Source: a bacterium
Lineage (GTDB): Bacteria; Patescibacteriota; Dojkabacteria; B142; OLB20
Reading direction: 5' to 3'
NCBI GenBank assembly: GCA_021463645.1
Contig: JAJTYI010000009.1
Coordinates: 255,269 to 300,756, forward strand
Length of the DNA: 45,488 nt
Below the pieces are notes generated by a model. It ran no database searches, was not told the DNA's origin, and worked only from the letters and a program-made list of their open reading frames with translations. This document shows, piece by piece, positions 31,452 to 45,488 of this stretch (its first letter is position 1; each line of letters begins with the position of its first letter). Made by a program: the position numbers and the translations under genes.

Positions 31452-31524
31452 GCTGGAATAGCTCAGTTGGCAGAGCACACCCATGGTAAGGGTGGGGTCC
31501 AGAGTTCGAATCTCTGTTCCAGCT
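31452..31524 (+). tRNA. tRNA-Thr(GGT), CCA not encoded
   Basis: GCTGGAA/TTCCAGC acceptor, CACCC-AT-GGT-AA-GGGTG, CAGAG-TTCGAAT-CTCTG. Confidence 0.96.
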
Positions 31525-31605
31525 TACTAACTTTTCTTAACGAGCTTGCGAGTTTAGAAAAGTTGTAATCCCGTAGATCTACCTTAGGGAGATCATACGG
31601 GATCT
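31524..31605 (+). repeat. Two-hairpin trailer cassette, homologous to 36526-36608
   Basis: TTAC.AACTTTTCT...AGAAAAGTT.GTAA followed by TCCCGTA...TACGGGA-TCT. Confidence 0.85.
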
Positions 31606-34698: not shown

Positions 34699-34980
34699 CT
34701 ATTTACGGACAATATGGGGGGTGTTTCGAAGATTCCCAATATTTAATTTAAGACGATTTATTTTCTCCTCCCTACTCCATTTCTTAATCTCAATCTCTCG
34801 TTTCAAAGCTTCAGACCAGCTCTCGAAACATTCCGTATAAATTAATTTAAATGGCTTCCTGCTGTTAACGTATTTTGACCCTTTGCCACTATTGTGTACT
34901 TCTAAACGCTCTTCAATATCTTTAGCAACACCTGTATAAAGTGAGTTGTCCCTGCATAATAATATATATAAGTTGCACAT
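34699..34980 (-). CDS. Stand-alone GIY-YIG nuclease (YhbQ/UPF0213-like)
   Basis: LYILLCRDNSLYTG, RLEVHNSGKGSKY, ALKREIEIK. Confidence 0.92.
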   Translation of the reverse strand: MCNLYILLCRDNSLYTGVAKDIEERLEVHNSGKGSKYVNSRKPFKLIYTECFESWSEALKREIEIKKWSREEKINRLKLNIGNLRNTPHIVRK

Positions 34981-35872: not shown

Positions 35873-35955
35873 GCAGAGGTGACGGAGCGGTCAAACGTAC
35901 CAGACTGTAAATCTGGCGGCGAGAGTCTACGGGGGTTCGAATCCCTCCCTCTGCA
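35873..35955 (+). tRNA. tRNA-Tyr(GTA), CCA not encoded
   Basis: GCAGAGG/CCTCTGC, CCAGA-CT-GTA-AA-TCTGG, long variable arm, GGGGG-TTCGAAT-CCCTC. Confidence 0.96.
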
Positions 35956-36023
35956 ATTAATTTGTAATAGCTCGTTATAATAAAAATGTTATGTTCGAAA
36001 AATCGATTGGGATGAAAAGTTTA

Positions 36024-36134
36024 CCCCGTGAATCGAACATAGTGAGATTGCACGGGGAATCCCTCCCTCTGCACCAATTCATTCAACGAACTTTGTGAGT
36101 TGAAAATGAATTGAGTGCCTGACTTTGGCAGGCA
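36024..36134 (+). repeat. Hairpin cassettes surrounding a 3'-end copy of tRNA-Tyr (36057-36076)
   Basis: CCCCGTG...CACGGGG (36024-36057), GAATCCCTCCCTCTGCA+CCA, CAATTCATT...AATGAATTG (36075-36113), TGCCTG...CAGGCA (36116-36134). Confidence 0.8.
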
Positions 36135-36294
36135 TAAGATTAGAATAGCTCTTTATAAGTAATATAATGCTGGAGTAGCTCAGTCCCGATAAATTGTAAC
36201 TCTGTTACAAATTTATCGTGGATCCTCACTGTTCTAATTCATCCCTTCTGGAGAAGGGAGGAAAGAACAGTGGGATTGGTAGAGTCCCGCAGGA

Positions 36295-36479
36295 GCTGGG
36301 ATAGCTTCCCGCTTCGCTTAAGCTACGCGGGACAGGCAGTTGGTTAGAGTCACTCCTCAGCTGGAGTAGCTCAGTTGGTAGAGCAACGGTTTTGTAAACC
36401 GTCGGTCATGGGTTCGAGTCCCCTCTCCAGCTGAGGAGTGATAAACAGTAGGTCGAGAGTTCGAATCTCTCCCCCAGCT
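36295..36479 (+). pseudogene. Middle tRNA shell (Thr-like, different isoacceptor) lacking the anticodon, with a 30-nt D-stem insert
   Basis: GCTGGGATAGCT[30 nt]CAGTTGGTTAGAG[...]TAAACAGTAGGTCGAGAGTTCGAATCTCTCCCCCAGC. Confidence 0.82.
36360..36432 (+). tRNA. tRNA-Thr(TGT), intact innermost gene, CCA not encoded
   Basis: GCTGGAG/CTCCAGC, GCTC/GAGC, ACGGT-TT-TGT-AA-ACCGT, GGGTTCGAGTCCC. Confidence 0.96.
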
Positions 36480-36525
36480 CCAACGGGATAAACCGTCGGT
36501 CATGGGTTCGAGTCCCCTCTCCAGC

Positions 36526-36608
36526 TTACTAGAGTTTCTTAATGAATAATGTGAATTTAGAAACTCTGTAATCCTCGAAATTGAGCGTAGCGAAATTATC
36601 GAGGATCT
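36526..36608 (+). repeat. Two-hairpin trailer cassette, homologous to 31524-31605
   Basis: TTAC.AGAGTTTCT...AGAAACTCT.GTAA followed by TCCTCGA...TCGAGGA-TCT. Confidence 0.85.
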
Positions 36609-37023: not shown

Positions 37024-37095
37024 AGGGTCATGATGTCAATGGTAGCATGGAGGTCTCCAAAACCTCTCGTCTAGGTTCGAATCCTAGTGACCCTG
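37024..37095 (+). tRNA. tRNA-Trp(CCA), CCA end not encoded
   Basis: AGGGTCA/TGACCCT, GAGGT-CT-CCA-AA-ACCTC, CTAGG-TTCGAAT-CCTAG. Confidence 0.96.
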
Positions 37096-37247
37096 TATGA
37101 AAGTATATAAGTAAAAAGCAAAATACTTTCGTCTAGGTTCCCCCGTATTAAATACGGGGCTAGTGACCATGTATGAAAGTATATAAGTAAAAAACAAAAT
37201 ACTTTCGTCTAGGTTCCCCCATATTGAATACGGGGTTAGTGGCCATG
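37096..37247 (+). repeat. Two tandem 76-bp units, each carrying an interrupted copy of the tRNA-Trp 3' end
   Basis: tatgaaagtat...atactt-TCGTCTAGGTTC[ccccgtattaaatacgggg]CTAGTGACCATG at 37096-37171 and 37172-37247. Confidence 0.9.
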
Positions 37248-43661: not shown

Positions 43662-45149
43662 GTGAGCAAATCAAAAAAACGAATCAGAACAAAAAAGTTC
43701 CTCAATACTTTATTGGTAATTATAGTAGTTACGCTATTCATTAGTACAGCTATTATAGCAATTATCTACACCCAAGGGGGGAAAATCACCAGAACAGGTA
43801 TAGTCGAGACTGGTAGTATAAGACTAGAAATACAACCTGAAGATAAAGAAAATTTGGTATACCTTGATGACAAACAAATTAAATCAGACGAAAGATTAAT
43901 CAATAATATCACTCCGGGTATTCATACCATTAGAATTGAATCCACAAAGTTTCATAGTTGGGAAAAAGATATTGAGATTTCCCCCTCATACGTTACTACA
44001 CTTCAAGTAAAGTTATTTCCCCTAGAACCAGAACTAACTCAATTAACACAGACTAACATCTCAAAACTATTCTTCAGCGAGGACGGATCTTATGCTTATT
44101 ATCTTGTAAATGATTCACTTGTAGAACCAAATGATCAAGGCCTATGGCGACTTAGACTTGAAGAACAAGAATTATTCTTTAGAAGAAACTCTGATCCAGA
44201 GAAAATTATTGGGCTTGAAGATACTTCACTTTCATATTTTACGGATCCTGATATTGAAGTAATCATCGATCAAACTAATAATAAGATGTTAATCGTAAAT
44301 CCTACTCTTCAAACAGTCACAATTTTTGATCCCACAAAGTCAAACACAGCCGAAAAAATTATAAATTTAAATGAACAAGTTGGTTTCTATCCTACTCAAG
44401 TGAACTGGTTCAATAACAACAACTCTATTATCGTATCTAATGATGAAATAATTATTGAATATAATATTATTAATCAAGAAAAAACAATTGTGAGTTACTC
44501 ACCAGATACAGAACCTATCTATGATACAGATGGAGAGGTGCTTTACACATACTCTTCTGCCAATAATACAATCAGCCTATATCAGAATCAGATAGCCCGA
44601 GTTTTACAGTTGCCTTCGAATTTCCCCATAAATAATATAAATGATCTCAGATTAGCTAGAGATGGTTCTTCGATTATTATTAGAAGTGATTCCATTTACT
44701 ATTATTACCAACTGGAGAAAAAACAATTTATTAAGATTAGTGATACTGGAGAAATTATCAACATAAGCTTTGATGGCACAAGTATTATCTTTAACATTAA
44801 TAATCAAGTTGTCTTCACTGTTATAGAAAAGTCACTCATAGATTTATCCTTATCAGTTAAGTCTACCCCGTCAATGATTGATGTAAACTTAAATCCTAAA
44901 TACATTAATAACTCAAATCTTGTGATAATAAATAACTACCCTCTAGAAAAGATACAAATTAGCGAGAATGATGGAAGTAATATAATAGATATTTTGAATA
45001 ATACCACTATCGACAATGGGTATTATAAGTTCCAAGAAGATGGATCCAGCCTAACACTTATGGTCGAAGATTCTTCAGAAGAAAATATACTGAACAAAAA
45101 TCTGTTTAAACTTGTACTAAATACTTCATCACTTCCGTTTAACCTCTAA
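43662..45149 (+). CDS. Membrane-anchored PEGA-domain protein with probable beta-propeller
   Basis: N-terminal TM, TGSIRL...ITPGIHTIRIE...WEKDI, FSEDGS-type repeats. Confidence 0.75.
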   Translation: MSKSKKRIRTKKFLNTLLVIIVVTLFISTAIIAIIYTQGGKITRTGIVETGSIRLEIQPEDKENLVYLDDKQIKSDERLINNITPGIHTIRIESTKFHSWEKDIEISPSYVTTLQVKLFPLEPELTQLTQTNISKLFFSEDGSYAYYLVNDSLVEPNDQGLWRLRLEEQELFFRRNSDPEKIIGLEDTSLSYFTDPDIEVIIDQTNNKMLIVNPTLQTVTIFDPTKSNTAEKIINLNEQVGFYPTQVNWFNNNNSIIVSNDEIIIEYNIINQEKTIVSYSPDTEPIYDTDGEVLYTYSSANNTISLYQNQIARVLQLPSNFPINNINDLRLARDGSSIIIRSDSIYYYYQLEKKQFIKISDTGEIINISFDGTSIIFNINNQVVFTVIEKSLIDLSLSVKSTPSMIDVNLNPKYINNSNLVIINNYPLEKIQISENDGSNIIDILNNTTIDNGYYKFQEDGSSLTLMVEDSSEENILNKNLFKLVLNTSSLPFNL

Positions 45150-45177: not shown

Positions 45178-45488
45178 TATAATCATGTGAGGGATTAACG
45201 AACCAAACGAAGTGAAGGTGAGTTTACCCGAACATGTCCCGTAAACGAGCGTAGCGAGTTATACGGGACCTAACGTTAAGTTCGCTATAATTTTAGGAGG
45301 TGTTGACGAACACAAGCCATAGGTGATGTGTGAGTCTAACCGAACTTATCCCGTAAACGAGCGCAGCGAGTTGTACGGGATCTAATGTAGTGTTCTGTAA
45401 AATCAACCGAGGGGTTAACGAACCAAACGAAGAGCAGGTGAGTTTACCCGAACTTGTCCCGTAAACGAGCACAGCGAGTTATACGGGA
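45178..45488 (+). repeat. Array of three or more ~110-bp double-hairpin units, truncated by the window end
   Basis: Units start GAGG at 45189, 45297 and 45409; TCCCGTAAACGAGCnnAGCGAGTTRTACGGGA at 45237, 45349 and 45457. Confidence 0.92.

Follow-up and report, generated by a model that had tools for sequence, protein, structure and literature searches.

The window analysed here, a stretch of 45,488 nucleotides of DNA from a bacterium of the Dojkabacteria, a CPR lineage, ends in a tandem array of short two-hairpin units, and the question that it raises is whether these units are genes in their own right or repeats that have accumulated beside another gene. The window corresponds to G000:C9:255269-300756, where G000 is the source genome GCA_021463645.1 and C9 is a contig whose end coincides with that of the window. 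The genome measures 1.2 Mb in 9 contigs, has about 35% G+C and is 88% complete, and the gene order in the window (L33, tRNA-Trp, secE, nusG, L11) is bacterial. A first-pass annotation, made from the sequence alone, had interpreted the units as tandem small RNA genes of about 80 nt, each with its own promoter, or as a reservoir array for cassettes associated with tRNA genes.

The basic description of the array was accurate. The GAGG starts at 45189, 45297 and 45409 are present in the sequence, each preceded by a -10-like hexamer and 5 nt, and the loop and triloop sequences had been given correctly. Tandem Repeats Finder identifies 45189-45488 as a repeat of period 112 with 2.7 copies, 77% matches and a score of 368, while the hairpin-2 pattern, allowing up to 3 mismatches, occurs 3 times in the window and 0 times in each of 100 shuffled sequences. 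The parts of the array are as follows (L030 and L054 are orthologous loci, described below):

45178-45183, + strand: -10-like TATAAT abutting the basal stem of unit 1; the box and its context are also found in L030 and L054.
45184-45236, + strand: hairpin 1 of unit 1, with a basal stem of 5 bp (45184-45188 with 45232-45236). Towards the loop there follow a tandem G.A step, the GGG/CCC stem, an internal loop of 3x2, 3 further base pairs, another tandem G.A step, the distal stem and the loop itself.
45237-45269, + strand: hairpin 2 of unit 1, with base CCCGTA/TACGGG, one bulge, a tandem G.A step and the triloop GTA.
45286-45291, + strand: -10-like TATAAT of unit 2.
45292-45348, + strand: hairpin 1 of unit 2, a long variant with an inner stem; the basal stem is degenerate, with 1 of 5 pairs in register.
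45349-45382, + strand: hairpin 2 of unit 2, with triloop GCA.
45398-45403, + strand: -10-like TAAAAT of unit 3; the same variant precedes the last unit of L054.
45404-45456, + strand: hairpin 1 of unit 3, a short variant with 3 of 5 basal pairs.
45457-45488, + strand: hairpin 2 of unit 3, with triloop ACA; the contig end cuts its 3' side.

Short reading frames starting from the AGGAGG-like beginning of internal units differ in both frame and sequence between units, and mini-ORFs were rejected. The 495-residue ORF upstream of the array (43662-45149) has no Pfam or NCBIfam match.

A covariance model, R1, was built from five units, namely the three of the window and two at G000:C4:185221-185416. 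The window units score 86.7 to 102.9 bits against it; unit 3 stops 3 model positions early (positions 1-83 of 86) at the contig end. RNAalifold predicts that the five units form two hairpins with 23 pairs, 4 of them compensatory, and their + strand folds have z-scores of -2.8, -3.5, -3.7, -4.9 and -1.7. Hairpin 1 consists, from its base, of a 5-bp stem, a tandem G.A step, a 3-bp stem and a conserved 3x2 internal loop. Beyond this loop come 3 more base pairs, tandem G.A again, the distal stem and, in many cases, a third purine-purine step. Hairpin 2 lies directly 3' of it and has a conserved stem base and a variable interior. Two details of the original description needed revision. What had been taken for a 5-nt gap between box and unit is the 5' strand of the basal stem of hairpin 1, which therefore reaches 5 bp further out than had been thought; and the hairpin-1 loops, whose sequences were right, are not open loops of 12-14 nt throughout, since in the longer units they are partly paired through the inner stem and second purine-purine step.

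R1 collected 37 matches, 30 of them distinct, from the source genome, its relatives and public metagenome-assembled genomes (MAGs). Among these 30 copies all 23 pairs change on both sides, which bears out the earlier claim of covariation. The paired fraction is 93.9%, compared with 70.1% in shuffled alignments, 0 of 500 of which reach the observed value, and with at most 46.3% in slid registers; the alignment was fitted to R1, which favours a high figure, but the margin is nonetheless large. The basal stem is formed by the 5 nt between the -10 box and GAGG and the 5 nt after the far-side CC(C)GA. In 11 of the 30 copies it is fully paired, in 6 distinct variants, and on average 3.67 of its 5 pairs form, compared with 3.02 +/- 0.12 for shuffled partners. 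Across genera the core of hairpin 1 is near-constant, unpaired letters included.

There are 15 G-U cells and 6 A-C cells, too few to tell RNA from DNA, so that selection at the RNA level is unproven. The G-U excess, the conserved G.A steps and the single orientation of the full module favour the sense strand. Favouring a life at the DNA level are the junctions with tRNA fragments described below, the changes in copy number, the patchy distribution and the occurrence in both orientations of simple stems resembling hairpin 2; in the tRNA-Lys leader such simple hairpins also occur in the opposite orientation. We read the tRNA-sense strand as the one under structural selection.

The array units have relatives elsewhere in the window. 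With filters off, the next three R1 matches are the cassettes at 31569, 36024 and 36572 that had been proposed as kin, and below an E value of 0.001 there is no match in the 45-kb window beyond these three and the array, all on the + strand. The cassettes and one adjoining fragment are:

31531-31605, + strand: a distant family member (29.4 bits, E 2.9e-5) directly after tRNA-Thr(GGT) at 31452-31524.
35983-36060, + strand: a family member (24.1 bits, E 4.9e-4) after tRNA-Tyr at 35873-35955.
36060-36078: the copied 3' end of tRNA-Tyr, from the T-loop onwards, directly after the preceding member.
36532-36608, + strand: a family member (28.3 bits, E 5.3e-5) after tRNA-Thr(TGT) and two copies of tRNA 3' halves.

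The two 3'-half copies behind tRNA-Thr(TGT) occupy 36434-36526; one derives from that tRNA itself and the other from a different tRNA.

The same association holds outside the window. In all eight family loci compared, the best R1 match lies upstream of a tRNA gene and on its strand (Arg, Asn twice, Gln twice and Lys three times). A metagenome scan gave 11 loci, and in the 8 where ARAGORN called a tRNA or tmRNA the module is on the strand of that gene; the other 3 have tRNA-like 3' ends by eye. Using R2, a second covariance model of the family that served for genome counts, 14 of the 15 matches in the source genome adjoin a tRNA gene on the same strand, the three array units being counted by orthology. 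The sole exception (C4:144041-144182) lies on the opposite strand, 350 nt from tRNA-His. It belongs to a stretch, G000:C4:144030-144260 (+), in which two direct repeats begin like a module; on one side of them is the tRNA-His region, on the other the sequence beyond. Of the 23 genomes of the order, 13 have the family, at 1 to 15 copies per genome, most of all G000 and its relative G004; within the genus it is present in 3 of the 4 genomes other than G000. The majority of tRNAs in the source genome lack a module.

Covariance-model searches had been proposed as a check, and modules were indeed found in related genomes while no Rfam family fits them. The array has no match in Rfam 15 at E values up to 10, the window matches at gathering score being tRNAs only. 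In eight related loci the modules have no match at E values up to 1, and the matches that do occur are to tRNA-like families or tmRNA on the genes themselves, with a weak group I intron match away from the modules. A blastn search of a phage collection and a pattern scan of the viral_contigs set were both empty, and a phage or plasmid origin was set aside. A literature search found no description of such modules in those portions of the literature that were available to it, and on this basis, together with Rfam 15, we conclude that the two-hairpin family is undescribed.

What lies downstream of the array is hidden by the contig end, which falls within unit 3; as had been suspected, the array breaks the assembly. 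The gene can be identified from orthologous sequences. At locus L030, on contig C61 of G004, the same ORF end is followed by 3 units, two further leader hairpins and then tRNA-Arg(CCT). L054, a metagenome contig with 94.75% identity to the window over 3010 nt, has 2 units and then tRNA-Arg(CCT); a hydrolase-like ORF is also present on it. A contig from sequencing run X9 (DNA), one of four runs compared, all as assembled contigs, follows the array up to 45293 and then switches to nucleotides 1-16 of tRNA-Arg(CCT) and a new module start. tRNA-Arg(CCT) is absent from the 41 tRNA genes of the source assembly (88% complete), and the sequence 3' of the array in L054 was not found there either. Taken together, these results place the array upstream of tRNA-Arg(CCT) in the source genome, on the strength of the orthologous sequences, and indicate that the repeat broke the assembly there; a tRNA was among the downstream genes that the first-pass annotation had considered. 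The array thus has the features that define the family, namely the two-hairpin fold, the tandem G.A steps and a position beside a tRNA or tmRNA gene on the same strand, the gene in this case being known through the orthologues. The number of units differs between the orthologous arrays: 2 in L054, 3 in L030 and at least 3 in the source genome.

Other contig ends in this assembly also share sequence. The 5' ends of C2, C3, C4, C6, C7 and C9 have a common terminal sequence of about 23 nt with two flank variants. They resemble the two termini of a multi-copy insertion sequence, which would be a further cause of breaks in the assembly.

Many modules are joined to broken copies of tRNA genes. In the genus of the window, the usual order is a copy of the neighbouring tRNA that runs for its first 16-17 nt and then gives way to the module, which occupies the D-loop position; Lys, Gln (two genes), Asn, Leu, Phe and Ser show this joint of nucleotides 1-16/17 to the module. 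Behind three of these modules (both Leu, and Phe) the copy picks up again with D-arm sequence and breaks off near the anticodon arm, the intact gene coming next. The second arrangement, a module followed by a 3' fragment from position 58/59 in the T-loop, is seen for Glu, Ala, Gly, Val, Tyr and tmRNA, in other genera and also after tRNA-Tyr and tRNA-Val in the source genome. The 3'-end copy often lies beyond the terminator of the gene, and in other genera a U-tract terminator separates tRNA and module, so that co-transcription there is doubtful. At least 16 of the 41 tRNA genes in the source genome have a partial copy within 1.2 kb, and other hairpin modules also occupy these D-loop and T-loop positions. 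The array in the window contains no tRNA fragment, whereas that of a related strain (the X9 contig) contains one.

Several further arrangements of this kind were noted. A second type of module, of two hairpins and about 95 nt, is located in the D-loop of incomplete 5' copies of tRNA-Thr(TGT), Met and Val (window 36169-36290; G000:C8:1335-1650; G000:C9:194447-194540), with two tandem copies of period 175 at tRNA-Met, each bearing a TATAAT. After tRNA-Trp, at 37084-37247 of the window, two 76-bp repeats each copy the 3' part of the tRNA, except that the T-loop is exchanged for a CCCCGT...ACGGGG hairpin. In three cases CCA follows the distal 3' fragment (window 36060-36081; L010:~1600-1620; L009, minus strand, after the module). 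The intact neighbours of these fragments (Tyr, tmRNA and Glu) lack an encoded CCA, and few of the 41 tRNA genes encode one; the fragment CCA could be the original gene end or the mark of an RNA-derived copy.

We consider it somewhat better than an even chance, at roughly 55%, that the array is a lineage-specific structured repeat of tRNA flanks, similar to REP or MITE elements, that was amplified in the leader of tRNA-Arg(CCT) and is probably a passenger of the pre-tRNA. Each unit of about 110 bp would represent one module plus a short linker in which the -10-like box has been kept. The module would spread at the DNA level through partial duplication or gene conversion of tRNA-gene segments, and tandem amplification would then yield the repeat-expanded 5' flank. 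No + strand terminator was found in the array, and transcription would therefore continue into the tRNA, the module most probably being transcribed as part of the pre-tRNA leader. RNase P RNA is present in the genome, so the leader would be removed in the usual way, by a cut at the tRNA 5' end that would take the module with it. As for the alternative part of the original proposal, the array may also act as a reservoir for the tRNA-associated cassettes. Several observations count against this reading, among them that no mobility enzyme was found in the source genome (88% complete) and that the near-constant hairpin-1 core could suit a host role as well, for instance in binding a protein. Also against it stand the small G-U excess, the oppositely oriented simple hairpins in the tRNA-Lys leader, the perfect basal stem of first units described below and, in other genera, the terminators between tRNA and module. 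We note separately that the RNase P RNA itself (type A, 112.8 bits, G000:C1:60447-60927) spans 481 nt compared with the 367 positions of the model, and so probably carries insertions.

A different origin can be imagined, in which the module would be a mobile element without genes, defined by its structure, that targets the two elbow loops of tRNA and tmRNA sequences (the D-loop after nucleotide 16/17 and the T-loop at about 58/59). It would be moved in trans, the tandem arrays before tRNA genes would be its amplification products, and it would compare in bacteria to the mobile introns of tRNA genes. We regard this as possible rather than likely. Three routes by which partial tRNA copies and the module could come together, namely integration at specific sites, tandem duplication with an insertion at the joint, and gene conversion triggered by a nuclease, agree with some of the junctions only. 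The Y1/RAYT transposase domain PF01797, which gave a match in 6 of 14 genomes used as a control, was not found in the source genome (88% complete), nor were reverse transcriptase or TnpB. Its only tyrosine recombinases are two PF00589 proteins that match best as XerC/XerD, below curated cut-offs. An Xer-like recombinase gene adjoins tRNA-Ile with anticodon TAT (G000:C5:1705-1778), and tRNA-Ile(GAT) is absent from the assembly.

A mover might perhaps be sought among small GIY-YIG (PF01541) ORFs, of which 8 are distinct; 4 of these have a tRNA gene on the same strand no more than 50 nt away. The tRNAs adjoining these four are His, Ser-GCT, Pro-TGG and Leu-TAG. The relevant features are:

G000:C4:143733-143930; C6:254426-254629; C4:217308-217511; and C3:38118-38333 with C7:22961-23038: tRNA-adjacent GIY-YIG ORFs.
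34756-34977 of the window: a fifth GIY-YIG ORF, about 500 nt from tRNA-Ala(CGC).
G000:C4:143940-144010, minus strand (His), and L041:5690-6000 (Leu): broken 5' tRNA copies with a G+C-rich perfect palindrome in the D-loop.

At tRNA-His, and at tRNA-Leu in L041 (another MAG), a GIY-YIG ORF separates the intact gene from a broken 5' copy whose D-loop carries a hairpin. The small ORFs look like free-standing homing-type nucleases tied to tRNA genes, and as candidate movers of the module they are a lead. Palindromes of the family found in the broken copies occur again behind tRNA-Asn and in L034 and L048.

A third reading gives the module a function for its host, as a cis element of the pre-tRNA: a platform for protein binding, processing or stability in leaders and trailers, selected for its RNA function, with the array multiplying module and promoters for a single-copy tRNA gene. 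The conservation of unpaired letters and of three tandem G.A steps on the tRNA-sense strand across genera is what such a function would leave, and the full module keeps the orientation of the tRNA in the loci examined, with the one exception in the source genome. The same tRNAs (Asn, Lys, Gln and Arg-CCT) carry it in G000, G004 and G006, and the -10-like boxes of the array have been retained. The patchy occurrence in the order and genus, the many tRNAs that lack a module, and the difference in unit number between near-identical strains are harder to reconcile with selection by the host, and modules also sit in dead tRNA fragments and, in other genera, behind terminators. Neither the L7Ae-family domain PF01248 nor the Nop domain PF01798 was found in the source genome (88% complete), so that a binder of either type is missing from it. 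A K-turn or box C/D platform was rejected on the absence of PF01248 and on the anatomy, the tandem G.A steps being placed between Watson-Crick stems on both sides, whereas a K-turn would have a 3-nt bulge directly beside them. On balance we hold a host-beneficial cis element to be an unlikely explanation of the array.

The idea that the units are independently transcribed small RNA genes of about 80 nt, each with its promoter, rests on the -10-like hexamer, which stands at a fixed place before 8 of the 9 array units in G000 and G004 when one mismatch is allowed, in linkers that are otherwise variable. However, the 5 nt after the box are the basal stem, so that TATAAT abuts the structure and a start about 7 nt after it would fall inside. 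The first unit has a perfect basal stem in 4 of 4 arrays. A transcript from the adjacent TATAAT could not contain that stem, and it follows either that transcription starts further upstream or that the fold matters in DNA. Neither a -35 partner (no hexamer pair) nor a + strand terminator was found in the array, its units lead into a tRNA gene, and homologous copies outside arrays have no -10 box, the position being occupied by tRNA D-loop letters that end in AAT.

RNA data give a weak hint in the other direction. X18, an RNA library that may hold DNA, covers 44953-45103 and includes one partly fitting 156-nt contig of a related unit, with a depth of 17.1 compared with 2 for the contig of a neighbouring ORF; these are depths of contigs only and could come from DNA. 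X19, labelled as probably DNA, covers 45205-45412. We think it improbable that the units are small RNA genes of this kind, and return to the tRNA-flank repeat as the preferred reading in what follows.

As a tRNA-flank repeat, the array resembles REP-type repeats, the tyrT repeats and att fragments in single respects, and does not clearly have the defining features of any of them. Like REP, BIME and REPIN sequences, the modules are short, structured, extragenic repeats with compensatory changes that are multi-copy, lineage-specific, variable between strains and sometimes clustered. REP elements are, however, dispersed in both orientations, whereas the modules are confined to the flanks of tRNA or tmRNA genes of Dojkabacteria and nearly always share their strand, and the module is longer and composite, its full form occurring in one orientation. 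A match to a known REP/BIME family had been named as one outcome that would overturn the original interpretation; neither a RAYT gene nor copies dispersed in both orientations were found in the source genome.

The repeats of the E. coli tyrT operon (rttR, encoding rtT RNA) are also tandem, lie in a tRNA operon, are tied to tRNA-gene fragments and give a non-tRNA RNA, which here is only predicted. The tyrT units reportedly carry a tRNA 3' end. They are downstream of the tRNA, and those of the array upstream; there is no sequence or Rfam match, and the module is found at many tRNAs and tmRNA, in the D-loop and T-loop fragment positions. Fragments at att sites are similar in being direct repeats of tRNA 3' ends that start in the T-loop next to an intact gene. 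Such direct repeats of tRNA fragments derive from kb-sized integrative elements, according to PMC9897764. By contrast, the inserts here are 75-215 nt and gene-less, 5' fragments with D-loop junctions are equally common, and the source genome has Xer-like recombinases only, no dedicated integrase having been found in it.

Insertions at D-loop and T-loop positions of tRNA sequences are also reminiscent of tRNA introns, and non-canonical introns and disrupted tRNA genes are described for archaea and red algae (PMC3978253). Spliceable introns of the BHB type were rejected: the splicing endonuclease PF01974 (EndA) was not found in the source genome (88% complete), and the tRNA copies that carry modules are truncated at about the anticodon arm. 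TIGR arrays, finally, likewise consist of regularly repeated structured units and occur in bacteria that are reduced or parasitic; PMC12045711 reports TIGR systems in parasitic bacteria and units that can be stem-loops, and describes dual repeats with spacers of about 9 nt or boxed-spacer stem-loops, from which our units differ in size and make-up. With PF01798 missing, TIGR-Tas was rejected, and a guide-RNA array of the CRISPR or TIGR type, to which the regular spacing, the variable distal loops and the parasitic type of bacterium (CPR) might have pointed, is extremely improbable, since the units of about 110 nt have conserved content, their variable parts are only 12-22 nt and are themselves paired, and a tRNA rather than an effector gene lies downstream.

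CPR genomes are tiny and dense, yet in this lineage the flanks of single-copy tRNA genes are crowded with conserved, strongly covarying, RNA-like structures and with dead tRNA halves. Either way, a covariance model is now ready for the annotation of tRNA-flank regions, and there is reason for caution before such arrays are labelled as small RNA genes or CRISPR-like loci. If the modules are selfish, tRNA genes would be contested by a new kind of non-coding mobile element, which would also lead to broken assemblies and to tRNAs missing from MAGs. If instead they have a function, that would point to an undescribed step in the expression or processing of tRNA, in a lineage whose set of RNases and ribosome-biogenesis factors is reduced.
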